Below, piece by piece: positions 32,351 to 52,729 of a stretch of DNA of 64,000 nucleotides (its first letter is position 1; the number at the start of each line of letters is the position of its first letter). The translations under genes were made by a program, and so were the position numbers. A model generated the notes under the pieces. It did not search any database. It was given only the letters and a program-made list of their open reading frames with translations, and was not told the DNA's origin. The stretch is from a virus: IMG/VR virus record IMGVR_UViG_3300031162_001603, positions 253 to 64,252 of that record; one strand, written 5' to 3'.

Positions 32351-33541
32351 ATGAGTGTATTTTGCGCAGAGGGGTGTCTTACTGGTATGACCAGTACAGA
32401 GAAAAATCAGATTTTCCGAAGAATTAGGAGAAAGATTGGTGCGCCTGTTATGGGGGTGGAATTAGTTGATGAGCAGATAGAGGAATGTATCTGTGAAGCA
32501 ATAGAGGAGTATTCTTCATACATAAATGACTGGGTTCTTAGAAATAGGCTTGGAGAGATGCTTGGTCTGCCTTCAGAAGTGGATTTTACATTAAAATATG
32601 TTTCCAATAGTCTTTATTTCGAAAGGTCTTATGCGACTGATATAGGTGAGCAAATAGGTCTTGGAGCTAACGGAACAACGGAGGTTAAAACAACTTCTAT
32701 AAATTTAACTGCTGGTACTCAAGATTATAGTGTACCTGAGGGAAGAGAGATTTTAGACATTCTTTGGTTTACTCCTTCTTTCATAAATTTATTTGGACTT
32801 GACCCTTTTGCTAATTCAAATATCGCATTTAGTGAGTTTGGAGCTTCATTTGCAGGGCATTCTCTTTATTCAGTAATGCCTGTTTTTGATACAATAATGA
32901 CCGCTCAGGCTGCTGAACTTAGAAATAGAGTAAGGGGTTCTGAATATCATTACATAATCAGGCCTGGACCAGATGGCACAAAAACAGTTAAGTTATTTCC
33001 AGTACCTAGGTCAAGCGGAGCTGTTGCTGGAGGTAATAGTAATATGGGAATTGGTGGTGGAGCTGGTACTCCAGGTACTGTGTTTTATACATATAGAGAT
33101 AGGGTTGGATATTATGGTAATTCTAGTTTTAGTGGTATGAACGCTAATCCAGGGTATTCAGCAAGTACAGAGACAGAACAGGGTAATGGTTTGGTTTCAG
33201 GCCCAGGTGATGCTCAACTTAATTATATCAACTGGAATCAACTTAATTCTGTTGCTCAAACTTGGATTAAAAAATACGCCCAAGCACTTGCTAAAGAGTT
33301 ACTTGGTATTGGTATTAGAGGTAAGTTTAATGGACAGCTACCAATACCTGGGGCTGAATTAACATTAAATAAAGATGACCTTATTTCAACAGGTAGGGAG
33401 GACCAGCAAAGACTAATGGATAAGCTTGAAAAAGACCTTGAGGAGCTTTCTTATGATAGAATAATGGAAAAAAGAGCTGCAGTGCAAGAGGCTGTAAATA
33501 GAACTCTTATGTACGTTCCTATGAAAATATTTACATACTAA
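32351..33541 (+). CDS. Neck protein (T4 gp13-like)
   Basis: RRKIGAPVMGVELVDEQIEECI, WIKKYAQALAKELLG..RGKF...PIPGAELTLN. Confidence 0.85.
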   Translation: MSVFCAEGCLTGMTSTEKNQIFRRIRRKIGAPVMGVELVDEQIEECICEAIEEYSSYINDWVLRNRLGEMLGLPSEVDFTLKYVSNSLYFERSYATDIGEQIGLGANGTTEVKTTSINLTAGTQDYSVPEGREILDILWFTPSFINLFGLDPFANSNIAFSEFGASFAGHSLYSVMPVFDTIMTAQAAELRNRVRGSEYHYIIRPGPDGTKTVKLFPVPRSSGAVAGGNSNMGIGGGAGTPGTVFYTYRDRVGYYGNSSFSGMNANPGYSASTETEQGNGLVSGPGDAQLNYINWNQLNSVAQTWIKKYAQALAKELLGIGIRGKFNGQLPIPGAELTLNKDDLISTGREDQQRLMDKLEKDLEELSYDRIMEKRAAVQEAVNRTLMYVPMKIFTY

Positions 33542-33545
33542 TTAA

Positions 33546-34118
33546 ATGGCTGATTTAAACGAAATAGGTAGACAACCAGATGGATTCAATGAAGATGAAT
33601 CTAAACCAGATGGTGTTGGATTATTTTTTGGAGATAAAGAGCGTGCGTTTTTTAGCCAATCTGGAAGAGAAATGACTGAAAATATCCTTCAAGAGTCTAT
33701 GATGCTCTTCAGGATAGATTTAAAAAGAACTCAAACCCATGGGATATATGGTGAAGCTAAAGCCTTTCAGAAGAATTGGAAGCCAGAATTAAAGATACTA
33801 GGTCGTATTAACGTTGAGTCAGTGGAGCCTGAATATGCAGCTGACCAGGGTCTTGTAAAAAAAGGTTTTGGACAACTTACTGCTCATATCTACATGGAAC
33901 ATCTTGAGGAGCTTGGTATTGTTAAGTATGAGCAAAATCAAATTGTTGTTTTTGACCTTAATGATGGTGATTTTATTGGATTTAAAGACCAGTACTATAA
34001 GATTATTAATAATGGTCATGCTCAAATATCTAATGAATTCTCTTGGGGTGGTGATAGAAGGTTTTATATTACCATTAGCGCTATTGAAATAGATGAGGAT
34101 GTTTTTAAAGCTAGATAA
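33546..34118 (+). CDS. Neck/head-closure protein (T4 gp14-like)
   Basis: Follows gp13; FFGDKE, IYGEAK, FDLNDGDFI, QYYKI. Confidence 0.65.
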   Translation: MADLNEIGRQPDGFNEDESKPDGVGLFFGDKERAFFSQSGREMTENILQESMMLFRIDLKRTQTHGIYGEAKAFQKNWKPELKILGRINVESVEPEYAADQGLVKKGFGQLTAHIYMEHLEELGIVKYEQNQIVVFDLNDGDFIGFKDQYYKIINNGHAQISNEFSWGGDRRFYITISAIEIDEDVFKAR

Positions 34119-34130
34119 GATATAGGTATT

Positions 34131-34170
34131 CTATATCTTCTTATATCTTCTTATATAATCTTATATAGCT
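34131..34170. repeat. Four imperfect tandem 10-bp repeats
   Basis: ctatatcttc ttatatcttc ttatataatc ttatatagct. Confidence 0.85.
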
Positions 34171-34455
34171 ACCAGACTTAGGGAAAATTCCAAAAAGATA
34201 ACGCCCCCCCTATTATCCCCCCCTCTATAAAAAGGTATTAACCTTTTTTAAAAGAGTCCTATGTGAGAGGACGCTAAGTTAATTGTTATACTTAGACTTA
34301 CACCTGCAGTGACAGGAACCAAATTGCTTTGGCGGATAATAGAGAGTTTGTTTTCCAATAAATCTGGTAAAAACTACCATGCTCAGTGCAAAATCTCTGT
34401 GAAAGAAAGCAACGCCCCCAAAAATAAAACTCGTTCACAGAGCAAAACTATGGTA
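34168..34455 (-). ncRNA. Candidate structured non-coding RNA (~290 nt), antisense to the neck/tail operon
   Basis: Nested long-range helices whose mismatches become G-U pairs only on the minus strand; four or five internal hairpins; TATTTAT motif 6 nt upstream on the minus strand. Confidence 0.6.
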
Positions 34456-34461
34456 AATGTA

Positions 34462-34468: not shown

Positions 34469-34518
34469 AAAACTACGATTTCAAGAAATCTTTTAACTAT
34501 TTATTAAAAAATAAACTA

Positions 34519-35651: not shown

Positions 35652-38342
35652 ATGGCAACAATATTTGTTTCACCTGGTGTATTTACAAGAGAGCAAGATT
35701 TCACAATCTTTGCATCAAGAATAGGTATTACAAGGTTGGGAGTAGTTGGTAAGACCTTAAAAGGGCCTGCCTTCGAACCAATTAAAATAAGAACTACAGA
35801 CGACTACTTGGCAAGATTTGGGTCTACAGACCCTAATTACCCTCTTCCTTATGTAGCTAATTCATTCTTAGCACAATCAAACGAACTAACTGTAACGAGA
35901 GTTTTAGGAAGTGATGGATTTACAAACTCACCAGCATGGATAATCATGGCTGATGTTTCTACGACTTATTCAGGAAACACAACTCAATCAGGTATGACAC
36001 TTACTGTGTCAGAACAAGCTGCTGGTAGCAACTGGACATTCACTACATCTGGAAATACTGTAAACCCTTCAAAGTTATCAGCATCAACTGTTGGTACTGA
36101 TATATTCGTAGACTACAATACAAACAGTGGTAGTACCTCAACTGTAGAGTGGTTAGCAGCATTAAACGCAACTGCTTTTAGCGGAATGGGTATTAGTGTT
36201 TCAGGGACGGACTCTACTTCATATCTTGGAGGAAACATTACATTCAATCTTTCGGGAGATACAATTGAAGCTAATGGCTCTAAGTCAGGTTCTACACTTG
36301 CGGTAATTAGAAGTAAGAGAAATCAGCTTGATAACTCATTTTACTTCGATGAAGAAAGTGATATTACAATTGGAGCACTTACATCTACACTTGGAAGCTT
36401 TATTCTTAGTGGTGCAACTGGGCCTCTTACTGCTCAAACAAATAGCGGATTTACAGTTTCACTTGATGAAACAAGAGAAGATTATATAACTAAAATACTT
36501 GGACAAAATCCAGAGATTATAGAAGGAGCGCCTCAGCTTTACGTTGAAAGCATCTACCCTCATTTTGTTAGAGAAGCAAGTGCTAGAGGTGATATAGAAT
36601 CTCTTAATCCAACACTAGCCTATACAAATGAAGCATCTTATACAGATTATGCTGATGGTTATACAAATGCAATTACTCCATGGGTTGTGTCAAGAGTAAT
36701 TGGTGGTGATGTTAAAAACTTATTTAGAGTACAAACTATAGCTGATGGTGACGCTTCAAATAGAGAAGTAAAAATCTCTATAGCGAACATTGACATCAAC
36801 AATTATACATTCGATATCATCGTAAGAAGATTTGAAGATACAGATGCAACAGCATCATCTACAGCTATTGAAAGATGGTCAAACCTCTCTCTTAGAGAAG
36901 AAGATGCAAATTATATTGCTAAGGTAATTGGTACAACTGATGAAACTTTCCCAAGAAAGTCAAGTTTCATTACAATTGACCTTGCGCCTTCATTCCCAAG
37001 GAATACAGTTCCTGCAGGATTTAGAGGATATGACTTAAGGGATTCTGGAATTTCAGGTTCTACTTCTGCTGGTGTATATTACAAAACTGATTACTTATCA
37101 GGAGATTCAACATTCAAAACATACCTTGGTATTTCTGAGCTTGGATATGAAAACTTTACAACTGACCAAGTATCATCAAGAACTGCAATTAAAAGTATCG
37201 AAGCTGATTTATTTAATTATGCAGGTGGTGTAACTACAGATATAACTACTGTTAAAGGTTTCCACATGGAAAACACAGCTGATTCAACAGCATTCGTTAG
37301 TGGTGATGAAAATTCACTTACTGGATATACAAATGCAGCTGGAACATTAATTGATAGAAATAAACTTAAATTTACACTTGTACCTTACGGAGGATTTGAT
37401 GGATGGGATAAGTACAAAACTTATACAGACCTTTACGAAGAGTTTACAGATTCTTACACAGAAAATGTTAATTCATTCAAAAATGCTCTTAACGAAATGG
37501 CAAACCCAGAAGTTGTAGACATTAACGTTCTTGCTACTCCAGGTGTTGACTACAGTAATAACTCAACAGTTGTTAAGTACGCACTTGATATTGTAGAAGA
37601 TAGAACTGATATAATCTACGTAATTGATGCGCCAAGACTTACAAGTGGTTCTGTAAAAGGAACTCCAGAAGAGATAGTCTCAAGACTTGAAGCAACTGGT
37701 ATTGATAGCAACTATGCTGCAACATACTGGCCTTGGATTCAAATTGAAGACCCTAACTCAGGTAAGTATACTTATCAATCGCCTACAATGATGGCAGTAC
37801 AAGCTTACGCACTTACAGATAATGTAGCTGCACCATGGTTTGCTCCTGCAGGACTTAATAGAGGTTTAGCTGGACCACAAGTTGTGAGAGCTGATGTTAG
37901 ATTGAACAACAGTGATAGGGACACACTTTATCAAGGTAGAGTTAATCCAATTGCAACGTTTGTACAACAAGGTGTTTGTATTTGGGGACAAAAAACTCTT
38001 CAAGTTAGACAATCATCTCTTGATAGAATTAATATCAGAAGATTATTACTTCAAGTTAGAAGATTAGTATCTGCTGCATCTCTTACATTATTGTTCGAAC
38101 AAAACGACCAAACATTGAGAGACCAGTTCTTAGCGAAAGTTGAGCCTTTACTTCTTCAAATTCAAAATCAAAGAGGTTTAACTGCCTTTAAGGTTGTGAT
38201 GGATGATAGTAATAATACTCCAGATACAATTGACAGAAACACGTTAGTTGGGAAGATTCAACTTCAGCCTACAAGAACTGCTGAATTTATTGACCTTACT
38301 TTTCAAGTTTTACCCACGGGAGCACGCTTTGAAGATTTTTGA
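35652..38342 (+). CDS. Tail sheath protein (gp18-like)
   Basis: FVSPGVFTREQD, GKTLKGPAFEP, DSNYAATYWPW, WFAPAGLNRG, RDTLYQGRVNPI, IWGQKTLQ, LDRINIRRLL, PTRTAEFI. Confidence 0.96.
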   Translation: MATIFVSPGVFTREQDFTIFASRIGITRLGVVGKTLKGPAFEPIKIRTTDDYLARFGSTDPNYPLPYVANSFLAQSNELTVTRVLGSDGFTNSPAWIIMADVSTTYSGNTTQSGMTLTVSEQAAGSNWTFTTSGNTVNPSKLSASTVGTDIFVDYNTNSGSTSTVEWLAALNATAFSGMGISVSGTDSTSYLGGNITFNLSGDTIEANGSKSGSTLAVIRSKRNQLDNSFYFDEESDITIGALTSTLGSFILSGATGPLTAQTNSGFTVSLDETREDYITKILGQNPEIIEGAPQLYVESIYPHFVREASARGDIESLNPTLAYTNEASYTDYADGYTNAITPWVVSRVIGGDVKNLFRVQTIADGDASNREVKISIANIDINNYTFDIIVRRFEDTDATASSTAIERWSNLSLREEDANYIAKVIGTTDETFPRKSSFITIDLAPSFPRNTVPAGFRGYDLRDSGISGSTSAGVYYKTDYLSGDSTFKTYLGISELGYENFTTDQVSSRTAIKSIEADLFNYAGGVTTDITTVKGFHMENTADSTAFVSGDENSLTGYTNAAGTLIDRNKLKFTLVPYGGFDGWDKYKTYTDLYEEFTDSYTENVNSFKNALNEMANPEVVDINVLATPGVDYSNNSTVVKYALDIVEDRTDIIYVIDAPRLTSGSVKGTPEEIVSRLEATGIDSNYAATYWPWIQIEDPNSGKYTYQSPTMMAVQAYALTDNVAAPWFAPAGLNRGLAGPQVVRADVRLNNSDRDTLYQGRVNPIATFVQQGVCIWGQKTLQVRQSSLDRINIRRLLLQVRRLVSAASLTLLFEQNDQTLRDQFLAKVEPLLLQIQNQRGLTAFKVVMDDSNNTPDTIDRNTLVGKIQLQPTRTAEFIDLTFQVLPTGARFEDF

Positions 38343-38484: not shown

Positions 38485-38964
38485 ATGTCTGGTATATACT
38501 TCCATCCAATAAAAAGAATATTCTTAAACCTATCAGGTGGTACTGTAACAGGGGATACGATATTTACTGAAGGGGTTTATGCTACTCGTTTATCTGGAGG
38601 AACCATTTACTCAGGAGCAACAGAGCTTACAACTATAATTCAAAATGTAGCAACCTCTTTTTCAGGTATAACTGGAGCCTTTTTGCCAATTACTGGAGGA
38701 ACTGGAGGTGCGTATAAATTTACAGGAGGCACAACAGCTGATACAGTTACAGTTGTAACAACAATAGCACCATCAGTTGATAACACAGTAGACATAGGGA
38801 GCCCTATAAGGAGATTTAGGTCACTTAATACAGTAGAAGGTATATCAGTCAATTTTACAGCTTCAACGAGCGTTAAAACAGCTAAACTATATCTGGGAAC
38901 AAAAACAATTACTGACACTAACATTATTTTAACAGGACAATGTATTGATGGAGGAAGTTGGTAA
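38485..38964 (+). CDS. Small Thr/Gly-rich fibre or decoration protein
   Basis: SGGT/TGGT-rich; ends IDGGSW. Confidence 0.7.
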   Translation: MSGIYFHPIKRIFLNLSGGTVTGDTIFTEGVYATRLSGGTIYSGATELTTIIQNVATSFSGITGAFLPITGGTGGAYKFTGGTTADTVTVVTTIAPSVDNTVDIGSPIRRFRSLNTVEGISVNFTASTSVKTAKLYLGTKTITDTNIILTGQCIDGGSW

Positions 38965-39008: not shown

Positions 39009-40784
39009 ATGGGTGAAATTAGACAAGCAACTCTATTAATTAGAGATAAATTAACTACAGGTGGTGCATTGCCATCTAACACTTTAATGGCAGAGCCATT
39101 TGTAAACTTATACGATGGTGTATTACAGTTTTCAGGTGTAACTGGAGGCGGATACGAGCCATCTTCTGTGGCAAGTGTTTTTGAAGTAGGTTCTACACTT
39201 TATAATTCAAAAATAACAAACAGACTTAATATTAATGATAATTTTATTATCAGTGGTGATACTGGACTTATTTCAACTTATGGAGCAACTTCAGGAGCTG
39301 GGCTTGTAGGGAAATTTCTTTCAGGTACAACAAGTGGATTTGTTCTTGGAAATATAGTTGATATTCAAGGTGTAACTACAAGAGTTCAGCCAGGAACAAA
39401 TATAACAACTGGCGGCACAGCTGATAACCCAACTGTAAACCTTGTTGATTCTCCTTCTATAAATGGATTAACTGCATCTGGAACATCTAATTTCACTGGA
39501 GTAATTCAATCTGGCGGAACTGACCTTTATAATATTTTCCTTACATCAGGAGACCTCTCAGGAACAACAGTTAGCGCTGGTTCAAATGTTAGTGTAAATA
39601 ATGTAGGAAATGACTATGAGGTATCTGTTATTGATTCTCCTTCTTTTAATGATATTACATTCTCAGGAACTGCAACTGGCGGAGACGCAATTGTAGGGGA
39701 AATGTCTGCGACCACTTTCTATTCAGGAAGTACTGATGTAGAAACTATAATTTATAATATAGCTGAGTCTATTTCTGGAACTCATACATTTGTTCAAAAC
39801 GGAACAAACACATTAACTGGTGGAACAGATTTATTACCAACTGTAAACATTGTTGATTCTCCATCTTTTAACAACATTGAGTTCTCAGGAACCGCAACTG
39901 GAGGTAATGTTTTTGCAACTGAATTAAGCGGTGGAACAATATACTCTGGAAGTACAGATTTATATAGTATTTTCCAACAAGTAGGAGCTGATACTAATCA
40001 TACATATGTCCAAAATGGAACAAATATAATAACTGGAGGAACTACTGCAGAGCCAACAATTAATCTTGTTGATTCTCCTTCTATAAATGGATTAACTGCG
40101 TCTGGAACATCTAATTTCACAGGAGTTATTCAATCGGGCGGAACTGACCTTTATAGCATATTTGCTACAGAAGATACAGTAGATGTTGTAAGGGTTCAAG
40201 GTGGAACAAATATTACAACTGGAGGTACAGATAATTTCCCTGTTGTAAACGTTATAGATTCTCCAGTATTTGCAGGACTCGTTTCTGCTACTGGATTCAC
40301 AGACTCAAGTTTAACAGCAGGAAGAGTTACTTACGCAGGAGTTGGAGGAAGACTTACGGACGAAGCGTTATTTGAATATGATGCAGTAGCTGATTTACTT
40401 AAGACACAAAATATTCAAATAGGTAATCCAGGAGATACTGGAACTACAACTACAATATTTGGAGACCTCCTCATAATGGGTGAAGGAATAAGTGGGTTTA
40501 CATCTGAGCTTTACATTGAAGATAATTTAATTGAACTTAATTATAATCCAACAGCATCTACAATTTCAACGTCTCTTGGAGCAGGTTGGTCAATTCAAGA
40601 TGGTTCTGGTGTAGGTGGTACAGATGTTTTTTGGGATATTAGAGGGGCAGCTACAGGGGTTGCAAATCGTGAATTTACAACCAACTTAGTAAACATTAGA
40701 GTGGCAGAAAGCGGAACAACAGCTTCTCCAAACGGATTGTATGTATTGAAATCCACAGATGTGATAGATGGAGGGTCATACTGA
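39009..40784 (+). CDS. Repeat-containing fibre/appendage protein
   Basis: About five VQ.GTN..TGGT...PT(V/I)N(L/I)VDSP modules; ends IDGGSY. Confidence 0.75.
   Translation: MGEIRQATLLIRDKLTTGGALPSNTLMAEPFVNLYDGVLQFSGVTGGGYEPSSVASVFEVGSTLYNSKITNRLNINDNFIISGDTGLISTYGATSGAGLVGKFLSGTTSGFVLGNIVDIQGVTTRVQPGTNITTGGTADNPTVNLVDSPSINGLTASGTSNFTGVIQSGGTDLYNIFLTSGDLSGTTVSAGSNVSVNNVGNDYEVSVIDSPSFNDITFSGTATGGDAIVGEMSATTFYSGSTDVETIIYNIAESISGTHTFVQNGTNTLTGGTDLLPTVNIVDSPSFNNIEFSGTATGGNVFATELSGGTIYSGSTDLYSIFQQVGADTNHTYVQNGTNIITGGTTAEPTINLVDSPSINGLTASGTSNFTGVIQSGGTDLYSIFATEDTVDVVRVQGGTNITTGGTDNFPVVNVIDSPVFAGLVSATGFTDSSLTAGRVTYAGVGGRLTDEALFEYDAVADLLKTQNIQIGNPGDTGTTTTIFGDLLIMGEGISGFTSELYIEDNLIELNYNPTASTISTSLGAGWSIQDGSGVGGTDVFWDIRGAATGVANREFTTNLVNIRVAESGTTASPNGLYVLKSTDVIDGGSY
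39441..40155 (+). repeat. Near-identical ~91-nt direct repeat (39441-39531 and 40065-40155)
   Basis: cttgttgattctccttctataaatggattaactgc...gacctttata occurs at both sites. Confidence 0.85.
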
Positions 40785-40884: not shown

Positions 40885-41244
40885 TTAGTAAGGATTAACA
40901 TCTCCTGGGATGTCTATTTGAATTTGTCCGTTTTGAGGAATAGATAATTTATTCCCATCTGAATATAATAATTGAAACTCTCCTTTAAATCTTCCAGCTT
41001 CATTAGTATCTTCTGCGTCCCAATTATATTGTATTGTTCCTGCGGAGAAAGAAATTATCTGTGCTGACTTAGCAAAGATTTTATAATCCCCACAATCGTT
41101 GGCCATAGTAAAGGTAACACCAGTTACGCCCGTAAGATTAAATGATTCTTTACCTCCAAGACATCCTCTATCAATTAAGCAAAGCTGTAAAGCTGGTAGT
41201 GTATCGTTTCTTTTTATTATGAATTCGTTTTTATTTTGTGGCAT
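40885..41244 (-). CDS. BppU-like Ig-fold virion protein
   Basis: IIKRNDTLPAL, GTIQYNWDAEDT..GRFKGEFQLLYSDG..LSIP. Confidence 0.7.
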   Translation of the reverse strand: MPQNKNEFIIKRNDTLPALQLCLIDRGCLGGKESFNLTGVTGVTFTMANDCGDYKIFAKSAQIISFSAGTIQYNWDAEDTNEAGRFKGEFQLLYSDGNKLSIPQNGQIQIDIPGDVNPY

Positions 41245-41719: not shown

Positions 41720-42208
41720 TTATGCAGCAAGTAAACATCTGTCTGGTTGGACAGTAATGTTAACCATTGCAACATCATCAGCACTATAGTCATAATCATC
41801 AAATGAAGCATTTGTGATTTGACAACCGATAAGTGTCCATTTTTCAACTTCAACACCAGTCGGGTCAAGCGCCTTAAGCACAAGATTCTTTTTATATCCA
41901 ATTGCGTATCCCATTCTACCAGTTGCAGACTCGAAATGAAGTCTTACCCATTCCATAACTTTCTGTGTAGTAGATGGTCCTATTACATCAATAAATGAAA
42001 TATCAATTGTTGACCAAACAGAACGACCAGCAACCCAAGTTGACGTGTTCATATATTGAATTTCAGTGGAACCTATCTCAAGTGATGGTTTCCCTGAGGT
42101 CTGTACCAAGAATGATTCTATACCAAGTTCCGTTGGGAATTCCAGCACGAATCTATTTTTTCTTTTTGGTTCCTGTTCAATTGGAACAGGTCTAAACATA
42201 TCAGCCAT
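41720..42208 (-). CDS. Tail tube protein (gp19-like)
   Basis: EPKRKNRFVLEF, KPSLEI, WVAGRSVWSTIDISF, GYKKNLVLKALDPTGVEVEKWTL, TVQPDRC; start moved to ATG 42208. Confidence 0.92.
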   Translation of the reverse strand: MADMFRPVPIEQEPKRKNRFVLEFPTELGIESFLVQTSGKPSLEIGSTEIQYMNTSTWVAGRSVWSTIDISFIDVIGPSTTQKVMEWVRLHFESATGRMGYAIGYKKNLVLKALDPTGVEVEKWTLIGCQITNASFDDYDYSADDVAMVNITVQPDRCLLAA

Positions 42209-42311
42209 AATTTTTTGTTTTATTAGTTGTTTTCTATTAATAAATAATAAGAAAATTTTTTTTTGTTTATTTTTTTTTTCTATATTTACATAAACACAAC
42301 AACTTTGATAT

Positions 42312-44024
42312 ATGGAAAAGGAATGCATGGTTTGCAAAAACATTTTTGAAACAGGAAGACATAAGGGGACAAAGACTTGTGGAAAATTATGTCTAAAAAT
42401 TCACAGAGAAAATACTAAGGAAGATAGGATAAGAAAATCTAAGGAAGCTATGATTAAGAAATATGGAGTAGACCACCCATCAAAGATACCTGGATTTTCT
42501 GACAAAGTAAAGAAGACTAAAAAAGAAAACCATGGAAGTGAGACTTATAATAATAGAGATAAGGCAAAGAATACTATGAAAAAAGAGCATGGAGTAGATA
42601 ATCCCATGCAAATAGATTCAGTAAAAGATAAAGTAAAGAAAACTAAAAAAGAAAATCACGGAAGCGAGACCTATAATAATAGAGATAAGGCAAAGGAAAC
42701 TATTAAAAAAGAATATGGAGTAGACCATCATTTACAGTTGAAAGAATTTTTAGACAAACAAATAAAGACTAATAAAGAAAAGAACGGAGTTAGCTATAAT
42801 GTATTAACAGAAAAAAGTAAAGAAAATCTAATAAAGAAAAACAATATAAAATTTGGTTCAGATTATTATTTTTCTTCTTTAGAGTATTTAAAAGAATCAA
42901 AAGATGAAAAACTAGCAAGATTAAGAGAGATTTTAAAAGAAAGAAAGTTATCAATACCAAAAGAGTTTGATGAAAATTATAATGGAATAAGGGAGATACA
43001 AGAAGATGGGAAAATAAAATATAAAAAATATGAGATTAAGTGTGAGAAGTGTGAAAATAAATTCGAATCAAGAGTTGTCTCTACTGCACTAATTTGCAGA
43101 GTTTGTTATCCAATTGAGTCAGGGTCAATTATACAAAGAGAAATGAAAGCGTATATAGAATCAATAATTGGAAATAATTTTAAGGAAAATGATAGAGAAA
43201 AAATTAAACCACATGAATTAGATTTCTATATTGAAGATAAAAATGTAGCAATTGAATTAAATGGTAATTATTATCATTCAGAAATAAGTGGAAACAAAGA
43301 TAAAAAATATCATATTTCAAAAACAGAAAAATGTAATAGAGAGGGGGTTAATTTAATTCATGTTTTTGAAGATGAATGGCTTTTAAAAAATGACATAGTA
43401 AAATCAAGGTTAAAAAATGTTTTAGAAAAAACTGATAATAAAATATTCGCAAGGAAGTGTGTTGTAAGAGAAATAACTTCAAAAGAAAAAACTGATTTCA
43501 TGAAAGTCAATCATATGCAAGGTGATTGTGTAGATAAAATAAGGGTTGGAATGTTTTATAGGGAAGAGCTAGTTTCTGTGATGACTTTTGGAAAACCAAG
43601 ACTTGCTCTTGGAATAAGAGGGGATAAAAAAGACAAAGAAGGTCAATATGAATTAATAAGATTTTGTTCTTCATTAAACACTTCTGTAATAGGAGGTTTT
43701 GGTAAGGTGTTAAAATATTTTACAAGAACATACAGTCCAAAAAAAATTATAACCTATGCAGACTGTAGATGGTCTGGAATTGATTATGAAAAAACTGTTT
43801 ATTTTAATAACGGATTTAGTTTTATAAAAAGAACAGCTCCATCATATTATTATGTTAAAACTAGTAATTATTTAGAAAGAAAACATAGATTTTCATTAAA
43901 TAAAATTAAGTTATTAAAAATGTATGGTGGAGATAAAAATAAAACTGGACAAGAATTGGCAGTAGAAAATGGATACGATAGGATATGGGATTGTGGTGCT
44001 ATGTCATTTGAAATTATTTTATAA
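42312..44024 (+). CDS. Second Hef-like homing endonuclease (KYGVDHP repeats, PD-(D/E)xK nuclease, GNAT-like C-terminus)
   Basis: KYGVDHPSK/HGVDNPMQ repeats, CEKC..CRVC, ELDFYIEDKNVAIELNGNYYHSE, ITYADCRWS, YDRIWDCG. Confidence 0.75.
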   Translation: MEKECMVCKNIFETGRHKGTKTCGKLCLKIHRENTKEDRIRKSKEAMIKKYGVDHPSKIPGFSDKVKKTKKENHGSETYNNRDKAKNTMKKEHGVDNPMQIDSVKDKVKKTKKENHGSETYNNRDKAKETIKKEYGVDHHLQLKEFLDKQIKTNKEKNGVSYNVLTEKSKENLIKKNNIKFGSDYYFSSLEYLKESKDEKLARLREILKERKLSIPKEFDENYNGIREIQEDGKIKYKKYEIKCEKCENKFESRVVSTALICRVCYPIESGSIIQREMKAYIESIIGNNFKENDREKIKPHELDFYIEDKNVAIELNGNYYHSEISGNKDKKYHISKTEKCNREGVNLIHVFEDEWLLKNDIVKSRLKNVLEKTDNKIFARKCVVREITSKEKTDFMKVNHMQGDCVDKIRVGMFYREELVSVMTFGKPRLALGIRGDKKDKEGQYELIRFCSSLNTSVIGGFGKVLKYFTRTYSPKKIITYADCRWSGIDYEKTVYFNNGFSFIKRTAPSYYYVKTSNYLERKHRFSLNKIKLLKMYGGDKNKTGQELAVENGYDRIWDCGAMSFEIIL

Positions 44025-44093: not shown

Positions 44094-47000
44094 ATGGCAG
44101 ATAACAGAAGCGCTCGTTTAATAACAAAGAGAACTACTGTACCTGGCAAGATTCCATCTGGAACAACTGGAAATGAGACTAATCTAATCCAGTCTGGAGA
44201 ACTTGCATCTAACTTATCAGACAAGAAGCTGTGGGGTTATAACGGTACAAATGTGTTCGAATACGGTTCAAATTCATTTTTGGGACTAACAGGAGGTACG
44301 ATTACTGGTAACACGAGAGTGATTGGTAGTTTTAGTGCTGATACTCTATATTCAGGCTCTACCGATGTTGAAACAATCATAAGAAATTTAATTTCAACAG
44401 ACACTTATACGTTTGTTCAACCAGGCTCAAATATAATAACAGGAGGAACTACACAGCTTCCAGTAATTAGTACAGTTGACTCTCCATTCTTTAATAATAT
44501 TACTATATCTGGAGACACAAGTCTTCAAGGAACAACAGCGACAACAATATCTGCAACAACAATTGCTGTTGGAGATTATGTTGATTTTTATTCTGGAACA
44601 ACTGGTAGCACAGACCCAACTCCATTAGCTGGTAGAGTATATTATGATAATTCTGAAAATGCATTATCTTATTATCCGAATACTCCAAATATGGATGTGA
44701 CCATTAACTTAGGTCAAGAAGGTGTAGTTTTAGCTCACAATGGAACTGGGAGTATTATAACAAATGGTTCAGCTTGTCATATAAATGGTGTAAATGGAGA
44801 CGGGCATCCAACAGTTCAATTAGCAATAGCCAGCGGAGTAACAGTTGTTACGGACACAAAATTCCAAGTAACTGGTATAGCAACACATGATATAGCACCA
44901 GGTGATGATGGTTTTATAACAACTTATGGAATTGTAAGAGACCTTAATATAACTGGTGTTACACCAGGTTCTGATATTTTTCTTTCAGATACTATTGCTG
45001 GAGAATTTAATTATGATTTAAACTCAATAAGTGGCTCTTCGAGAGTGTCGAGGCTTGGGCATGTAATTTCTACTGGAACAACAACAGCATCAATTCTTGT
45101 TGAGATAGAAAACGAAGCAGCGTTAACTCTTTTATCAGCGAAGCAAGCGGAGATATTGACACAGAATAACGCATCAACAGGAGTAATTCAGGGTGGAGTT
45201 TTAACTACTGCAACAACAACAACATTTAATGTTACGTCTGGAAAGGGATATATTGCTAATAATATAGACCAATTTAATCCAATATTGAGTGAAGTAAATT
45301 GGGATGCATTTACGGGAGTTACAAGCACTTATGTTTCTGATACAGGAGAAACATTTTCTTATATTTATGTAGACATAAATGGGGGATTAGTTCAGATACC
45401 TGGTTCTACGCTGGTAACATCACAACAAAAAAGAGGGCAAATATTGCTTGGTGGTTTATTGCATGTAAGCGGACAATTGTTGCAAGCATGGGAGAGACCA
45501 GTTCCTTTAACAAATCCAATAAATCAACTTGAAGACTTATCATCAAGTATAGGTTCATTTTCTGTAACTGGAAATAGAATCTCTAAAATAACTGGAACTT
45601 TGAGTTTACAAAAATCATTGGGTACTTCTTTTTATCTTGGAGGTAATTATGATATAAATTCTCAAAACCCTAATATAATAACAGAGCCAATATTATCAGC
45701 AGATACATTCATGTATGCAGCTGGTACTGGTTTAATTGGGCTTAATGGAACAACAATAGATATTGATAATTATGACCCAAATGGTTTTGGAATTGTAACA
45801 GCATTAACGAGCAATAATTATACAGCACATAGAATATGGCATCAACCAAGTGAAAATCTTCTCATATTTCAATATGGTCAGAATGAGTATACTTCATTGG
45901 CTAGTGCAAAAGCAGATTTTTCAACATTTGATTATATTGCACCAGATTTTTTACTTAAAGAAGCTTATATTTTAGCTGTTATTATTTCTAGAAGTGGTGA
46001 ACCAGATTTAGATAACCCACTTAGGTCAATTATAGTCCCACAAGCAAAATTTGCTGGAACAGGGGGTGGTGGAACAACACCAGACACACTTCAAACAGCT
46101 TATGGGAATTCTACTAGTCCAGAAATTACTACAGATTCTTTAAGGGGCCCTGTAGATTTTAGAACTGGTGTTTTAGAAGAAAGTCAAGTTGTAACTTTTC
46201 AGAGCACTGGAGGCACTGTTAACGCATTTGTGCAGGGAGATGGTAATTCATCTTTTAAAAGCTTATCAGCAACAACGTTTTATTCGGGGTCAACAAACCT
46301 TTATGATATATTCGTTGACTCAGTGAGTGGTGGAACAAATGTAAATGTTTCTGGAACAGATGGAAATCCAACCATAAGCGTTGTTGATTCTCCTTCATTT
46401 AATAATGTATTGTTCTCAGGAACAGCAACTGGTGGAGACATTATTGCAAACTCTGTTTCTGCAACAACAATTAGTGGTTCTACAATTTATTCAGGAGGAA
46501 CAGATTTATCAAATATATTTCAAACAATACATGATATTGACCATACGCAGGTTCAACCTGGAGTAAACACATATACAGGTGGAACGATAAAGTTTCCAAC
46601 AATAAACGTTGTTGACTCACCAAGTTTTAATAATATTGAGTTCTCAGGAACAGCAACTGGTGGAGACATTATTGCAAACTCTGTTTCTGCAACAACAATA
46701 TATATCAACGGAACCAGTGTTGATAATATTTCTCACACAGGTCTTACTGAAATTGGACTTAGAACTCATCCAGAGCTTGATGACGTTTGGTCAACAATTG
46801 TTGGTTCTATTGTTGAAAATCCTAAAATTAATATTGTTGAATCTGGAGGTACTGTTAGTTTAGAATTAGAGCAAGATGGGGGCGGAGATTTGACTCTTAA
46901 TTTAACAGGAGGCTCGTATGTGTTTGATTCTACACCAGCTGTGAGTATCGCATTAACTAGCGGGACTGACACAGTTCCAGTCCTTAATTATATTTATATT

Positions 47001-48908
47001 GATGGAATTACAAAGCTACTAACAGCTTCGTTGGCACCCTTTCCAGAAACACAATACATTCCGATTGCTACAGTATTATTACAAAGTGCTTCAAGCGTTG
47101 CTTCAGATGGGCCATATAAAGTACATCAATGGTCTGACCACCTCTTAAAAGGAGGAGATAATGGTCACCTGTCTCATATAAACTATTGGATTAGGCTTCA
47201 GCAGGCAACATATGAAAGTGGAGTAGACCAGACACTTACTATAACACCAAGCGCTTCTACACTTGATGATGTAATATTCAATTCAACATCAGGAACCATT
47301 CTTCAATTGCATGAACACGCATTTCCAACATTCTCTGGAACACCAGATATGTATGTTGTAAACGATAGTGTAACACCATATAATAAAATTACAAACCTAA
47401 ATGAAATACTTACAGATTCACTTGGAAACTCTTTAGTGAATAGGAGATTTAGTGTTGTTATATGGGGAGCTGTGAATGAAGAATCTGGTGATTGTAAACT
47501 TTTTGTGAACTTACCATCTGGAGCATATGGGACAGATAATGGAGTGATAAGAGATGTAAATGGTTACGCTAACTTTTCTATTCCAAATGAATTTGTTGGA
47601 GTTGGGTTTATGATTTCTGAATATGATTTAAGACATCGCTCAGAAAGCGGAGGTACGTGGTCGTTGATTAAAGAAACGGACCTTAGAGGAGTGTTTCCAA
47701 TTAAGGGAGCTATAACTGGAAGCACGGTTAATGGTGAGTTTAGAGATAACTATGCGGTTATTGCTGCAATAGAAGATTTTCCAGAGGCTGTTAATGATGT
47801 AATTACCTTAGAGGATAATTATATATATGAAATTGTAGGTAATATAAATCTTGGAAATTCCAGGATTGAATTGGGAGATAAATCAAAGTTAGAAGGAAAA
47901 CTTAGAACAAATGATGGGATTATATACACAGGGACTAGCGCTGCGATTATATCAAATGGCGCTGACTTTAGTTTGAATACCATTTTTGTATCAGCCCCAC
48001 TTGGAACAGTGTTTGAATTTTCTGCCACAACTGGAAGTGAACAAACTAATTTTATTGCAATTGAGAACTGTATATTTAATAATATTAATAGTCTAGGGGT
48101 TGTTGAAAACGTAAGGCTTTTTGGGTTTGAAAATAATATAATAGAAAACGCAGCTAATGGATTAGCGTTTAACGGTTCACAAAACGGAACCTTCCTTATG
48201 TATGATAATATCATTCCATCTATGAGTGGGACATCTGTTCAGTTTAATAGTTCTGGATGGGATAATGTCACAATAGATAGAAACATAATTACTGTTATGT
48301 CTGGGCAAACAGGTATTTCTGGTTTAACTGCAAACGGAAACCTTAAAACAACAGGTAGGGGTCGTGTGACATCTAATGGGTTTATTGGAGGTGGAGCTTA
48401 CATCGAAGGGATAAATACAGGGGGAACAAGGTGGCAATTCCTTGGGAATGACGGAATTCCAGATGATACAGATGCAAACTCAAACATTGAGGTGTATATT
48501 ACTGATAATACATCAGCAACAACAATTACGACAATTGACACACCAACTCAAGTTACTTCTTTAAATTGGAATGTAGACTTTTTCTCAAGATTTACATACA
48601 CTGGGGGAACAGTTACTTATGCTGGAGCGGATGATACAAGAATATCTATGGATGCTACTGTGTATTTTACCTCAACAAACAATCAAGACCTTAATTACTA
48701 CTTTTCTATAGATTCTGGGGCTGGTTTTCAAGTACTAACATCAACAAAAGCTCCGTCAAGAACTCAAGGTGCTGATTCGACAACATTCGCAAATCCAAAA
48801 GGATTGCTAGATGTGTCTTTTGGAGATAAAATTGCTTTATTTGTTGAAAACACAACATCATCTAGTGACATTAAAGTAACAGATATGAACTGGACAATTA
48901 ATACATAA
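44094..48908 (+). CDS. Large tail fibre/appendage protein (1604 aa)
   Basis: Mtd_N-like start (RLITKRTTVPGKIP...GELASNLSDKKLW); shares VDSPxFN modules with 39009; beta-helix-like C-terminal region. Confidence 0.75.
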   Translation: MADNRSARLITKRTTVPGKIPSGTTGNETNLIQSGELASNLSDKKLWGYNGTNVFEYGSNSFLGLTGGTITGNTRVIGSFSADTLYSGSTDVETIIRNLISTDTYTFVQPGSNIITGGTTQLPVISTVDSPFFNNITISGDTSLQGTTATTISATTIAVGDYVDFYSGTTGSTDPTPLAGRVYYDNSENALSYYPNTPNMDVTINLGQEGVVLAHNGTGSIITNGSACHINGVNGDGHPTVQLAIASGVTVVTDTKFQVTGIATHDIAPGDDGFITTYGIVRDLNITGVTPGSDIFLSDTIAGEFNYDLNSISGSSRVSRLGHVISTGTTTASILVEIENEAALTLLSAKQAEILTQNNASTGVIQGGVLTTATTTTFNVTSGKGYIANNIDQFNPILSEVNWDAFTGVTSTYVSDTGETFSYIYVDINGGLVQIPGSTLVTSQQKRGQILLGGLLHVSGQLLQAWERPVPLTNPINQLEDLSSSIGSFSVTGNRISKITGTLSLQKSLGTSFYLGGNYDINSQNPNIITEPILSADTFMYAAGTGLIGLNGTTIDIDNYDPNGFGIVTALTSNNYTAHRIWHQPSENLLIFQYGQNEYTSLASAKADFSTFDYIAPDFLLKEAYILAVIISRSGEPDLDNPLRSIIVPQAKFAGTGGGGTTPDTLQTAYGNSTSPEITTDSLRGPVDFRTGVLEESQVVTFQSTGGTVNAFVQGDGNSSFKSLSATTFYSGSTNLYDIFVDSVSGGTNVNVSGTDGNPTISVVDSPSFNNVLFSGTATGGDIIANSVSATTISGSTIYSGGTDLSNIFQTIHDIDHTQVQPGVNTYTGGTIKFPTINVVDSPSFNNIEFSGTATGGDIIANSVSATTIYINGTSVDNISHTGLTEIGLRTHPELDDVWSTIVGSIVENPKINIVESGGTVSLELEQDGGGDLTLNLTGGSYVFDSTPAVSIALTSGTDTVPVLNYIYIDGITKLLTASLAPFPETQYIPIATVLLQSASSVASDGPYKVHQWSDHLLKGGDNGHLSHINYWIRLQQATYESGVDQTLTITPSASTLDDVIFNSTSGTILQLHEHAFPTFSGTPDMYVVNDSVTPYNKITNLNEILTDSLGNSLVNRRFSVVIWGAVNEESGDCKLFVNLPSGAYGTDNGVIRDVNGYANFSIPNEFVGVGFMISEYDLRHRSESGGTWSLIKETDLRGVFPIKGAITGSTVNGEFRDNYAVIAAIEDFPEAVNDVITLEDNYIYEIVGNINLGNSRIELGDKSKLEGKLRTNDGIIYTGTSAAIISNGADFSLNTIFVSAPLGTVFEFSATTGSEQTNFIAIENCIFNNINSLGVVENVRLFGFENNIIENAANGLAFNGSQNGTFLMYDNIIPSMSGTSVQFNSSGWDNVTIDRNIITVMSGQTGISGLTANGNLKTTGRGRVTSNGFIGGGAYIEGINTGGTRWQFLGNDGIPDDTDANSNIEVYITDNTSATTITTIDTPTQVTSLNWNVDFFSRFTYTGGTVTYAGADDTRISMDATVYFTSTNNQDLNYYFSIDSGAGFQVLTSTKAPSRTQGADSTTFANPKGLLDVSFGDKIALFVENTTSSSDIKVTDMNWTINT
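46413..46699 (+). repeat. Identical 59-nt direct repeat (46413-46471 and 46641-46699)
   Basis: ttctcaggaacagcaactggtggagacattattgcaaactctgtttctgcaacaacaat occurs twice. Confidence 0.9.
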
Positions 48909-49755: not shown

Positions 49756-50796
49756 ATGAACATATTTGCATATAATATTAGCGGCCAAACATTAGGGGTT
49801 GACCTTGTATCTTGGAATGATAGTGAATTGGGTGAAAACAGTCCTTTTATGACTTCCGCATCAACAACTCTTGATGGATACTCTAACATAACCTCAATAG
49901 AAAATTGGGATGAATTTGGTGATTCTGCTGGTTATAGACATTGTAAGACAAGAAAAGAAATAAAAGAAATTTATGACACTCAGACTGGAACAACTTGGAG
50001 TGCATATACTTTGAGTGACCAAAAAATTCTTTCTAAATACTTTATTGTAGATAAAGATAAAAGAGATGAGGTCTACACAGATGAAGAACAAGAAGGGTAT
50101 AATCACTATAAGCTTTATGATTTCTTGAGTGATGACATTTTTGAATCTATAGGAAGTATAAACCAAAAGAAAGCGCCAAAGTCAATCGACTATAAAAAAG
50201 ATTTGAGTCAAAGATTGCATCCAGACTTCAAGTTTGATAATTTTGGGCTCTTAACTGGTTGTACATATTATGAGAATTTAACGGTATCTTATGATTCATA
50301 TGGGTTTACGGTATTTACTTATGACAATCCAATCCTTAATTATGTTGCAGATTATACTTTTGCAGATAATGGGTATGTTACTACGAGAACTATAACCAGA
50401 AAATGGTACAAAATGGATGACACTCTATCTGATGATAGTAAAGTATCACTTAAGGTATATCCTCCAATGGTTGCAAGAGATGAGGCAAGGAGGAGGAGAA
50501 AGAATTTAATTAATGACCTGCTTGTTAAGACAGTTGGTTTGATTATTATGACATCTGTAGATTTAACTAATATTAATGATGCAGAAGCTGATGCTATTCC
50601 CTTCTTGAAGGACATTAGTTCATCTATATCTGCTTATTATGAGTATGGAACTAAACAGGATTCTAATGGAAATCTCTGCGAACTAATACAAGACATATCA
50701 ACACACACATATTCAAGATTAGATAATTTTGTTCCAGGAACAAGCGATACAGTTACGATAAGAATGTTTATTATTAGCTCTCTCGACCCTCAATAA
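49756..50796 (+). CDS. Hypothetical virion-associated protein
   Basis: Late motif at 49744; FIVDKDKRDEVYTDEEQ block shared with 48910. Confidence 0.6.
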   Translation: MNIFAYNISGQTLGVDLVSWNDSELGENSPFMTSASTTLDGYSNITSIENWDEFGDSAGYRHCKTRKEIKEIYDTQTGTTWSAYTLSDQKILSKYFIVDKDKRDEVYTDEEQEGYNHYKLYDFLSDDIFESIGSINQKKAPKSIDYKKDLSQRLHPDFKFDNFGLLTGCTYYENLTVSYDSYGFTVFTYDNPILNYVADYTFADNGYVTTRTITRKWYKMDDTLSDDSKVSLKVYPPMVARDEARRRRKNLINDLLVKTVGLIIMTSVDLTNINDAEADAIPFLKDISSSISAYYEYGTKQDSNGNLCELIQDISTHTYSRLDNFVPGTSDTVTIRMFIISSLDPQ

Positions 50797-50824
50797 ATTT
50801 AATTATATTTATAAACAAAAAACT

Positions 50825-51364
50825 ATGAACACATTACTTATATTATTGGCAATTTTTACTGTACTTGGCTTAATTGTATCTAAAGAATTTAGAAATGGAT
50901 TAATTACTATATTAGGTTCAGCCTTGGTATTTACACCAGTTATTATTATTGGAATATTATATAGTATTCCTTATTCTTTGTATATGCCATTTAAAGAAAA
51001 AGATTGGAAAGTTTTTTTTAAAATTTGGTGGAGACTTATTGATGGTACTTACGCTTTTTTAGGAGATGTAATGTACCAAGGATTCTCAGTAAGGTATGAT
51101 GAATTAGGTAATGTTTGGGGAGAGTGGCTTGAAGATGTGGTAGCAGTGAGAGAGAAAACAAGTTTTGGAGATAAGAGAACAACAATATCAGCATCAATAG
51201 GTTTTTTAGAGTACTATAAGATATTTATGTATAAGAGAGGTCATAGTTTAAGTAAAGTTTTAAATTGGGCATTTAGACAAGAAAGGCATGCAATCGGTTC
51301 TTGGGAAACTAAGTTAGCATTAAAAGAATTAAAAGATAAAAACTTAAGTGGAAATATAAAATAA
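50825..51364 (+). CDS. Membrane protein of unknown function
   Basis: Two N-terminal hydrophobic segments; DELGNV..TISASIG block. Confidence 0.6.
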   Translation: MNTLLILLAIFTVLGLIVSKEFRNGLITILGSALVFTPVIIIGILYSIPYSLYMPFKEKDWKVFFKIWWRLIDGTYAFLGDVMYQGFSVRYDELGNVWGEWLEDVVAVREKTSFGDKRTTISASIGFLEYYKIFMYKRGHSLSKVLNWAFRQERHAIGSWETKLALKELKDKNLSGNIK

Positions 51365-51422
51365 AAATCAAATATTGATTTTGTCAAAAAAAGGAGCTAT
51401 ATTTTGTATAACTCCTTTTTTT

Positions 51423-52388
51423 ATGTCAGAAGATAATAGTGTACCAAGCAAGCTCAAAAATAAACCCTTCAAAGGTAAGAAGAGTTTGTGTATTTCAGGC
51501 GGAGGAGCAAAAGGCGCTTGGGCTGGAGGAGTTATTCAACATCTTGTAGAAGACCAAGGAAAAGATTATGACTTATATGTAGGAACATCTACTGGAAGTC
51601 TTTTAGCTCCTCTCACGTCTATTCGTGAACTTAATCTTTTAAAAGAGGGTTATACAAATATTACATCTGATGATATTTTTTCTGTAAATCCATTTGATAG
51701 TGAAGGAAATGTTAAAACATGGAATGCACTTAAAAGAGTGGTTACTCTTAAGAAAACTCTTGGAGAAACGCATAATCTTAGAAATTTAATAAAAGAGTAT
51801 TTTAAAGAAAAGCATTTTGATAGACTGTATAGGTCAGATAAAGAAGTTATTGCAGTGGTTTCAAATTTAACAGATAAAAGGCCAGAGTTTAAATCATCAA
51901 ATGACAATAAATATGAGGACTTCATTGATTGGCTTTGGGCATCTTGCAATGCGCCTATTGTTACAAGTATTGTTGAGAAAGATGGAAATCAATATGCAGA
52001 TGGAGCTATATATGAGCACATTCCAATTCAAGTGGCTATAGAAAATGGTGCCACTGAGATTGATGTTATTGTTCTTAGCCCAGAAGGTTTTGGGGTTGTT
52101 AAGAGAGGGAGGATTGAAAATTTACTTCAACATTTCTTCAGGCTTATGGATATAATGCAAAGAAAAACTGCTAAAGATAATATAGATTTAGGTAAGTTAA
52201 ACTCACATGGGAGAGAAATTTCAATTAACATATATTATACTCCATATAGTCTTACAGATAATTCTCTTGTGTTTAAAAAAGAGCAGATGTTAAAGTGGTG
52301 GGAAGAAGGTTATATCAATGCAAAGTCTGGAAATGTAAAAAAATATAAGATTACAAGGTCAAATGTTTTCAAAAAAGTGGAAGAATAA
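51423..52388 (+). CDS. Patatin-like phospholipase
   Basis: SGGGAKG oxyanion motif, GTSTG nucleophile, ADGA; start moved to ATG 51423. Confidence 0.9.
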   Translation: MSEDNSVPSKLKNKPFKGKKSLCISGGGAKGAWAGGVIQHLVEDQGKDYDLYVGTSTGSLLAPLTSIRELNLLKEGYTNITSDDIFSVNPFDSEGNVKTWNALKRVVTLKKTLGETHNLRNLIKEYFKEKHFDRLYRSDKEVIAVVSNLTDKRPEFKSSNDNKYEDFIDWLWASCNAPIVTSIVEKDGNQYADGAIYEHIPIQVAIENGATEIDVIVLSPEGFGVVKRGRIENLLQHFFRLMDIMQRKTAKDNIDLGKLNSHGREISINIYYTPYSLTDNSLVFKKEQMLKWWEEGYINAKSGNVKKYKITRSNVFKKVEE

Positions 52389-52420
52389 TCTTTTAAAGCT
52401 ATTTATTAAAAAGCTTAGAG

Positions 52421-52729
52421 ATGAATATTACAACTGGAGTAACCGTATACGAACAAATTATTTCTGTAAATGAAGATAATAACCCTGTTACTGGGGTCAC
52501 TTTCGACACTGTAATGTATAGAGATGGTATTGATTATACTGGAATAACCGTCAGTACTTCTTTATCAGACGCTTCAAGAGGCGTATATACGGCTGAATGG
52601 TCTGCTTCTACTGTAGGAGATTATCAACTTTATGCAAAAAATAATATTACTTCTGTAATATTTATATCAGACAATGTAGCTGTTAAGTCTGATGAAGAAC
52701 TATCAACAAACGTATATATAGGACTTTAA
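52421..52729 (+). CDS. Small Ig-like virion protein
   Basis: NNPVTGVTF, GVYTAEWS..VGDYQL; late motif at 52400. Confidence 0.6.
   Translation: MNITTGVTVYEQIISVNEDNNPVTGVTFDTVMYRDGIDYTGITVSTSLSDASRGVYTAEWSASTVGDYQLYAKNNITSVIFISDNVAVKSDEELSTNVYIGL

Follow-up and report, generated by a model that had tools for sequence, protein, structure and literature searches.

The question raised by this locus is whether a short motif repeated over the tail proteins of a phage marks the sites at which the phage glycosylates its own particle. The window, by which we mean the whole 64,000-nucleotide stretch analyzed (positions 253 to 64,252 of the IMG/VR record IMGVR_UViG_3300031162_001603), is nearly all of a 64.8-kb viral contig of metagenomic origin from an uncultured phage, with a GC content of about 32%. 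Because CheckV places its completeness at 24%, the contig is a fragment of the genome of a jumbo myophage, which would be roughly 270 kb long. Several proteins of its tail module are crowded with the tetrapeptide [ST]-[GA]-x-T, and a large operon for glycan synthesis lies upstream, which had led the initial annotation of this DNA to treat the motif as a candidate sequon. The data favor selection for the motif as such, acting on the exposed surfaces of the tail within a single clade of phages. That it would serve there as an acceptor or recognition tag for phage-encoded O-glycosylation in the cytoplasm is the interpretation toward which we tentatively lean; a purely structural role is nearly as likely.

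Motifs were counted in eight tail, neck, and fiber proteins and compared with the counts expected from composition shuffles. Pooled, the eight hold 94 copies where 17-21 are expected, an enrichment of about 5-fold (z 16-19). The high Ser, Thr, and Gly content of these proteins, together with the paralogy of three of them, could suggest an artifact of composition, of paralogy, or of a signal in the DNA. Several results stand against this. Shuffling of whole proteins leaves 91 motifs in seven of the proteins against 16.7 expected (z 19.4), and shuffling within blocks of 12-40 residues, which keeps the local composition, leaves 94 against 18.7-21.4 (z 16-18). The five proteins outside the fiber paralogues still hold 27 motifs against 5.4 (z 9.7, block shuffles). 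Control motifs stay near chance, with the reversed motif at 1.7-fold, [ST][GA]xS at 1.2-fold, and NxS/T at 1.0-fold; other spacings, at 1.4- to 2.2-fold, are also far weaker than the motif. When all three-residue patterns in six templates were scanned without bias, SG.T ranked first, TG.T second, and SA.T fourth. The synonymous codons for Ser, Gly, and Thr at the motif positions are mixed in roughly background proportions, and the selection is therefore on the protein and not on the DNA. Composition, local composition, and a DNA-level motif were each rejected as the cause on these grounds, and we regard an artifact of any such kind as very improbable. Known sequons were also considered and rejected: D[ST][AILVMT], NxS/T, SGxG, and NTxT (0.5-fold) are not enriched in the virion proteins.

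The counts given in the initial annotation were recovered with one small correction. The sheath holds 12 motifs in total, and the 10 at residues 107-268 are exactly the tetrapeptides that had been listed; we likewise find nine in the 159-residue protein at 38485, four in the protein at 52421, three in the neck, and three in the BppU-like protein at 40885, while the "many" motifs of the protein at 39009 come to 19 and the "more than 30" of the 1604-residue fiber to 39. For the protein at 49756, the multiplicity is borne out, with a count of five in place of 3-4. The near absence of the motif from replication and packaging proteins also stands (0 and 1 in the two halves of DnaE, 0 in the terminase), and composition, named then as a possible sole cause, is answered by the shuffles above. 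The description of the motif as virion-wide goes too far: the major capsid protein (2 against 1.0 expected) and the portal, the tail tube, and two small proteins of the neck/tail-terminator region, 33546 and 34309 (0 each), are not enriched, and the tube, 33546, and 34309 families have 0 motifs across 16-20 orthologues each.

The residue rules at the motif are narrow. Thr occupies 45% of the positions after [ST][GA]x, an enrichment of 3.9-fold, with Ser, Val, and Ile depleted at +3; before [GA]xT, at position 0, Ser is enriched 4.1-fold and Thr 2.5-fold, with Asp and Asn depleted. The extended consensus reads hydrophobic-[S/T]-[G/A]-x-T-[V/I/D]. A site-by-site spectrum over the 26 motif columns conserved within four families (those of the sheath and of the 38485, 52421, and 40885 proteins) gives Ser in 54% and Thr in 38%, then Gly in 62% and Ala in 25%, then a free position, then Thr in 84% (Ser in 3%), and S-T and G-A exchanges are seen at single orthologous sites; the spectrum thus shows that the degenerate [ST]-[GA]-x-T is what selection keeps at each site. 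In an alignment of 34 sequences of the 38485 family, which begins L-S-G-G-T-V-T-G-D-T, the invariant columns are motif residues. Conserved motif columns are likewise found in 15 orthologues of the 40885 protein and, four in number, in 5 orthologues of the 52421 protein, and 14 orthologues of the neck average 3.3 motifs, with four columns conserved.

These rules bear on the strongest alternative, in which [ST]-[GA]-x-T is a purely structural, clade-specific beta-motif that stabilizes hairpins, bulges, or beta-helix rungs and has nothing attached to it. Its modules would then have been duplicated and shuffled among tail proteins, and the operon would act elsewhere, for example on the host envelope. 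Against such a role, Asp and Asn do not substitute at position 0, and their depletion there sets the motif apart from ordinary Asx/ST turns; nor is Thr at +3 replaced by Val, Ile, or Ser. Gly and Ala swap at single sites, and a special glycine backbone conformation is therefore not required.

The distribution among relatives bears on the same choice. Sheath searches returned 80 IMG/VR loci, 25 from a near clade (sheath identity 52-80%) and 55 from a sister clade (30-37%). Motif enrichment is 2.4- to 5.6-fold per locus in the near clade and 0.3- to 2.3-fold in the sister clade (1.31-fold pooled), where the few enriched open reading frames (ORFs) are collagen-like G-X-Y repeats. The virion proteins of T4 (n = 26) hold 26 motifs against 25.5 expected, and 80 unrelated fiber ORFs that carry L-[ST]-G-G-T-M-T-G-x-L show 1.58-fold enrichment, or 1.35-fold without the anchor copy. 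A general property of T4-like virions or fibers was accordingly rejected (T4 1.0-fold, unrelated fibers 1.58-fold, sister clade about 1.3-fold), and the low values in T4 and in the unrelated fibers also argue against a purely structural motif. In alignable sheath columns with a conserved aromatic residue at +2, near-clade sequences read TGYT, TAYT, or SAYT at one site and SGYT or SGFT at another, and sister-clade sequences read DTYS, STYS, or PLYV and GSYS, RTYA, or TGYS. Sheaths of the sister clade thus retain both the fold and the aromatic anchor although they lack the motif, which is therefore dispensable for the fold and forms an overlay specific to one clade.

Other short patterns divide differently between the two clades. 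[ST]-G-S is enriched about 2.4- to 2.6-fold in both (L002-L081), whereas [ST][GA]xT is enriched in the near clade only, and D-G-Y stands at 1.9-fold in the sister clade and 0.8-fold in the near clade. Two sister-clade fiber ORFs (L034:1010-2623 and L060:166-3423) carry long collagen-like repeats of G-P-T triplets and G-x-T-G-S-T-G-A-T-G-P-Q-G units. These repeats recall the glycosylated G-P-T repeats of Bacillus BclA.

A complete relative, G001 (388,594 bp; L082-L101), allows the motif to be followed over a whole genome, where 367 copies occur against 128 expected. The excess falls in about 21 of 485 ORFs and is clustered, with the largest cluster at 57.9-96.3 kb (fibers, sheath, and neck), a second at 135-160 kb, and a single ORF near 188 kb, which has YadA-head repeats. 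For the motif-rich ORFs of the second cluster, PHROG and Pfam mostly gave no matches, apart from one CarboxypepD_reg domain; these large unannotated proteins are possibly of the baseplate. We note that IMG/VR classes G001 as a provirus, although its GC content is uniform (0.31-0.37 over 20-kb bins). Among the 424 non-virion ORFs of this genome, the motif is marginally depleted (42 against 58.8, 0.71-fold, P 0.013), with control motifs at 0.94- to 1.24-fold, which is a weak sign in favor of a tag.

Within the tail, the motif lies on the outside. The sheath class is secure: PF17482 and PF04984 score above their cutoffs, T4 gp18 is matched in the PDB (E 3e-32), and a Foldseek search with the model agrees (E 4e-23). 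In the AlphaFold (AF2) model (predicted local distance difference test score 80), exposure was judged at the level of domains. The motif-rich residues 107-268 are inserted where gp18 carries its protruding domains. Over residues 90-300, 14 long-form near-clade orthologues average 8.07 motifs against 1.54 expected (5.2-fold), and the sister clade stands at 1.3-fold. In the 14 orthologues, residues 301-600 are enriched 3.0-fold, while the motif is missing from residues 1-89 and stands at 0.3-fold in the inner C-terminal domain. The initial annotation had asked whether the motifs might be buried; at the domain level those of the window sheath are not, as they sit in the protruding domains and are absent from the inner N- and C-terminal domains. 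The contexts in the model are varied, ranging from strand interiors and hairpins to loops and, in one case, a helix, which is another point against a single structural role.

Table 1. Features of the window discussed in the text, with observed and expected counts of [ST]-[GA]-x-T; aa, amino acids; GT, glycosyltransferase.
Feature	Coordinates	Strand	Remarks
Tail sheath	35652..38342	+	T4 gp18-like, 896 aa; 12 motifs vs 2.9 expected; PHROG 23, Pfam sheath domains, PDB matches to T4 gp18
Sheath protruding outer domain(s), residues 90-300	35919..36551	+	10 of 12 sheath motifs
Neck / head-tail adaptor (gp13-like)	32351..33541	+	3 motifs vs 0.6 expected; PHROG 211
159-aa fiber-module protein	38485..38964	+	9 motifs vs 1.5 expected
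591-aa fiber of repeated modules	39009..40784	+	19 motifs vs 4.0 expected; paralogous to 38485 and 44094
119-aa BppU_N-like small tail protein	40885..41244	-	3 motifs vs 0.1 expected; weak Pfam BppU_N match
1604-aa long fiber	44094..48908	+	39 motifs vs 7.2 expected; repeat modules common with 39009
346-aa tail-module protein, unknown family	49756..50796	+	5 motifs vs 0.5 expected
102-aa small tail-module protein	52421..52729	+	4 motifs vs 0.4 expected
Major capsid protein	27146..28858	+	PHROG 138; 2 motifs vs 1.0 expected, not enriched
Tail tube protein (negative control)	41720..42343	-	PHROG 4542; 0 motifs here and in 19 orthologues
Glycan operon, 19 genes, runs off contig end	89..15535	-	Pfam
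GT-B (GT4-like) glycosyltransferase, soluble, candidate protein glycosyltransferase	20382..21713	+	PHROG 7162, weak Pfam GT1/GT4; between phoH and head genes
GT2, best-conserved operon gene in motif-bearing clade	12859..13605	-	59-79% identity in 5/5 large near-clade contigs
Operon gene with neck-like N-terminus	13617..14228	-	BLASTP vs 32351 protein: 39.5% identity over 43 aa, E 1e-5

The gene content of the window points to a possible reader of the motif. The glycan operon is followed by phoH, the gene for the GT-B glycosyltransferase, the head genes including that of the major capsid protein, and a tail module at 32046-52729 with the gp13-like neck, the gp18-like sheath, the tail tube, several fibers, and small proteins of unknown family (Table 1); the terminase, the portal, and a split DnaE are encoded in the rest of the contig. 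The very large operon announced in the initial annotation is there, with 15.5 kb and 19 genes, at a distance upstream of 11.6 kb from the capsid gene and of about 20 kb from the sheath gene. Its products include NAD-dependent epimerase/dehydratase-family enzymes, a GDP-mannose 4,6-dehydratase, a sulfotransferase, a GT11, a GT10-like enzyme, three GT2 enzymes, further GT-A candidates, and a thioredoxin. Membrane segments are predicted in none of the 19 proteins, and no flippase, polymerase, or polyprenyl-phosphate transferase is found in the operon. The operon proteins are thus predicted to be soluble, as would fit the assembly of a glycan on a soluble acceptor in the cytoplasm; peripheral O-antigen transferases also lack membrane segments, so the solubility of the operon proteins fits them equally. 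One operon gene, at 13617, begins with a paralogue of the N-terminus of the neck protein and is present in 3/5 relatives; through it the operon may have a physical connection with the virion.

The glycosyltransferases divide between the two clades as the motif does. Orthologues of the GT-B, 54-74% identical, occur in all five large near-clade contigs and in a sixth near-clade contig. Besides the GT2 at 12859, the GT-A (10527) and the GT10-like enzyme (8860) are found in 4/5 of the large contigs and the GT11 (1589) and the epimerase in 3/5; the missing cases fall at contig ends. The near clade keeps the GT-B, the 12859 GT2, the GT-A, the GT10-like enzyme, and the GT11 at 15-35 kb upstream of the sheath, and the arrangement of glycosyltransferase genes beside virion genes is conserved in five relatives. 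Among ten sister-clade contigs (about 530 kb), two of which span the capsid-to-sheath region and at least 20 kb upstream, the GT-B was found in 0/5, the 12859 GT2 and the GT11 in 0/10 each, and the GT10-like enzyme in 1/10 (a weak match), and some other GT2 is present in 4/5. The comparison with relatives lacking glycosyltransferases that had been proposed with the sequon therefore leaves it standing, as motif enrichment is absent where the conserved set is absent.

Taken together, the motif statistics, location, clade distribution, and gene content shown here lend partial support to the initial suggestion of a sequon, against which the untagged capsid counts; we infer the attachment of sugar, the enzyme that would start the chain, and the role of the coat. 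In the mechanism that we propose, a clade-specific tag would extend over exposed beta-rich tail surfaces, namely, the outer sheath domains, the neck, small baseplate- or fiber-associated proteins, and the fibers, and soluble phage-encoded glycosyltransferases would act on it in the host cytoplasm before or during tail assembly. A conserved transferase, for which the GT-B and the 12859 GT2 are candidates, would place the first sugar on the Ser/Thr or the Thr of the motif. The GT-A, the GT10-like enzyme, and the GT11 would then extend the chain, probably with fucose, and tailoring specific to each lineage would follow, in this phage by the sulfotransferase and a weakly supported possible methyltransferase. 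More broadly, a large clade of uncultured aquatic jumbo phages, probably on Bacteroidota, might use cytoplasmic glycosyltransferases that read an [S/T]-[G/A]-x-T sequon and coat the tail exterior, but not the head, with a fucose-containing, lineage-tailored glycan; we offer this as a possibility with clearly less than an even chance.

A number of observations, set out in this paragraph and the next, weigh against a glycosylation tag, and many of them speak for a structural motif. About 66% of the motifs are preceded by a hydrophobic residue and 45% are followed by one, and several of those in the sheath lie within predicted strands or hairpins, both of which look structural. Three paralogous fiber proteins (38485, 39009, and 44094), made of short repeated modules that each bear the motif, account for 67 of the 94 copies, and the most conserved columns of the 38485 family are the motif residues themselves. 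Most of the sheath excess falls at semiconserved positions, and lineage-specific motifs in the outer domain average only 2.4 per sequence, where 1.5 are expected for the whole domain. Some motif copies lie within known tail-fiber elements. The fibers of G001 match Pfam PTR (PF12789) at 81.9 and 47.3 bits (cutoff 27), and the 40885 protein resembles BppU_N (PF10651) at 20.8 bits, below the cutoff of 23.1. L-[ST]-G-G-T-M-T-G-x-L, an element similar to the invariant start of the 38485 family proteins, occurs in at least 120 viral contigs and is widespread in fibers of unrelated phages, and T4 gp36 holds S-G-D-T-M-T-G. The sheath, the neck, and the 49756 protein fall outside these families; the window fibers at 38485, 39009, and 44094 have no Pfam match, PTR included, and the 52421 protein has no BppU_N match. 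No match was obtained for the 39009 fiber in Pfam, PHROG, or the PDB, for the fiber proteins and the 38485 family profile in PDB sequence searches, or for the 38485 N-terminus in a tblastn search of isolated phages. The capsid is without the tag, the non-virion depletion seen in G001 is not repeated in this window (8 against 6.4, 1.25-fold), and location is confounded with fold class because a beta-rich fold is found in the tagged outer proteins but not in the untagged inner ones. Against a structural role, the five nonparalogous proteins are still enriched 5-fold; such a role stays, in our judgment, a serious contender that falls only a little behind glycosylation.

The remaining difficulties concern the enzymes. 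The fold of the AF2 model of the GT-B matches the GT4 enzymes MshA, PimA, PglA, and BshA; it is a generic GT4 fold and uninformative on the acceptor. Relatives of the GT-B with 24-34% identity occur in coliphages, Campylobacter phages, and a 735-kb megaphage. Two complete 33-kb phages of about 33% GC (L243+L244 = G016; L245+L246 = G018) carry a relative that is 27-28% identical and show no [ST][GA]xT enrichment and no sheath match, although the function of the GT-B may differ at 27% identity. The co-occurrence of the motif with the glycosyltransferase set amounts to one clade-level split, with no repeated events. Among the relatives examined, there was no sign of the sulfotransferase, the amine oxidase, the possible methyltransferase, or an orthologue of the GDP-mannose dehydratase; the "fucosylated/sulfated" glycan of the initial annotation thus has its genes in this phage and describes at most this phage, since the sulfotransferase and the GDP-mannose dehydratase are not conserved among motif-bearing relatives. 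A late-promoter-like motif, CTATTTATW, occurs 14 times between 15577 and 54792 (5.2 expected; 12 on the plus strand), mostly about 20-50 nucleotides (once about 90) before the start codons of virion, terminase, and other late-region genes, and the 15.5-kb glycan operon has no copy. For the GT-B, transcription could start from the CTATTTATW site before 18818. As for the GT-B as a DNA glycosyltransferase, no obvious hydroxymethyl-pyrimidine route was seen in G001, whose one ThyA-family gene (303 bits) looks like an ordinary thymidylate synthase.

The absence of the promoter-like motif from the operon and the distant GT-B relatives that occur without the tag leave room for a tag that is read by something other than a glycosyltransferase. 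It could direct another modification of Ser/Thr, or it could dock a decoration protein, an assembly chaperone, or a host surface ligand, and the evidence for a recognition tag leaves the identity of the reader unspecified. We consider this unlikely: family searches of the window ORFs turned up no kinase or other Ser/Thr-modifying enzyme, and the clade-specific genes beside the virion module are glycosyltransferases.

Some further features of the contig concern its host and its tail module. The host phylum is likely Bacteroidota, because one homologue of the 159-residue fiber protein is binned in a metagenome-assembled genome of Bacteroidia. Several glycosyltransferase families belong to the core genes of a lineage of jumbo phages described from aquatic Bacteroidota (PMC12619734). 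A megablast search of the whole region against isolated phages gave only a 64-bp match at chance level. Two paralogous HNH homing-endonuclease genes (28993-30681 and 42312-44024, both on the plus strand; 31% identity over 554 residues) adjoin the capsid gene and the tail tube gene, respectively, and neither is matched by a gene of the near-clade relatives examined; 32 nucleotides of the second are common to it and the start of the tube gene, which lies on the minus strand. A patatin-like phospholipase (51375-52388, plus strand; Pfam E 9e-30) is encoded in the tail module between motif-bearing small proteins.

If the glycosylation reading is true, no tailed phage would have been described before with a protein glycosylation system that is directed by a sequon. 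Sequon-based sugar-coating of tails would bear on protease resistance and the avoidance of wrong surfaces, on adhesion to mucus or algal polysaccharides, and on recognition by hosts and immune systems, and a short portable acceptor tag with a compact set of soluble enzymes would be of use in glyco-engineering. Since the motif specifies which residues of the sheath and other abundant proteins should be modified, the hypothesis is easy to test. If the motif is structural, it would still be an unusual clade-wide beta-motif and a caution that a motif enriched in tail proteins need not be a signal for modification.

Three known systems invite comparison. The general O-glycosylation of Bacteroidota takes place outside the cytoplasm, on exported proteins, and its glycans contain fucose; Fletcher et al. 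2009 reportedly described its sequon as D-[S/T]-[A/I/L/V/M/T]. The likely host phylum matches, and the sequon D-[ST]-[AILVMT] occurs here 25 times against 23.0 expected (1.09-fold). The glycosylation enzymes of chloroviruses are soluble and cytoplasmic. In chlorovirus PBCV-1, the capsid protein Vp54 is glycosylated autonomously, with a fucose-rich glycan at the atypical sequon N-T-x-T (PMC9614988). Like the system proposed here, that of PBCV-1 is virus-encoded and independent of the typical sequon of the host, and Thr stands at +3 as it does in this motif; it differs in being N-linked on Asn and in acting on the capsid of a eukaryotic virus. We treat the common spacing of the +3 Thr as only a resemblance, and as a lead.

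The closest described system is the virion glycosylation of mycobacteriophages (Freeman et al. 2023, Cell Host Microbe, as summarized in PMC12619734 and PMC12691614). The transferases of these phages glycosylate the capsid and the tail tube, at the C-termini of the subunits (PMC12619734). The likeness is that of a tailed phage with its own glycosyltransferase genes beside the structural genes, whose virion proteins would be modified in the cytoplasm. The two differ in target proteins, in the type of site, and in gene set: here the capsid and the tube are untagged, the candidate sites are a tetrapeptide spread over the outer domains of the sheath, the neck, and the fibers, and the gene set is far larger, with a fucose pathway, GT10 and GT11 enzymes, and a sulfotransferase. 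Glycosylation in the mycobacteriophages has been demonstrated, whereas the system proposed here is predicted from sequence.

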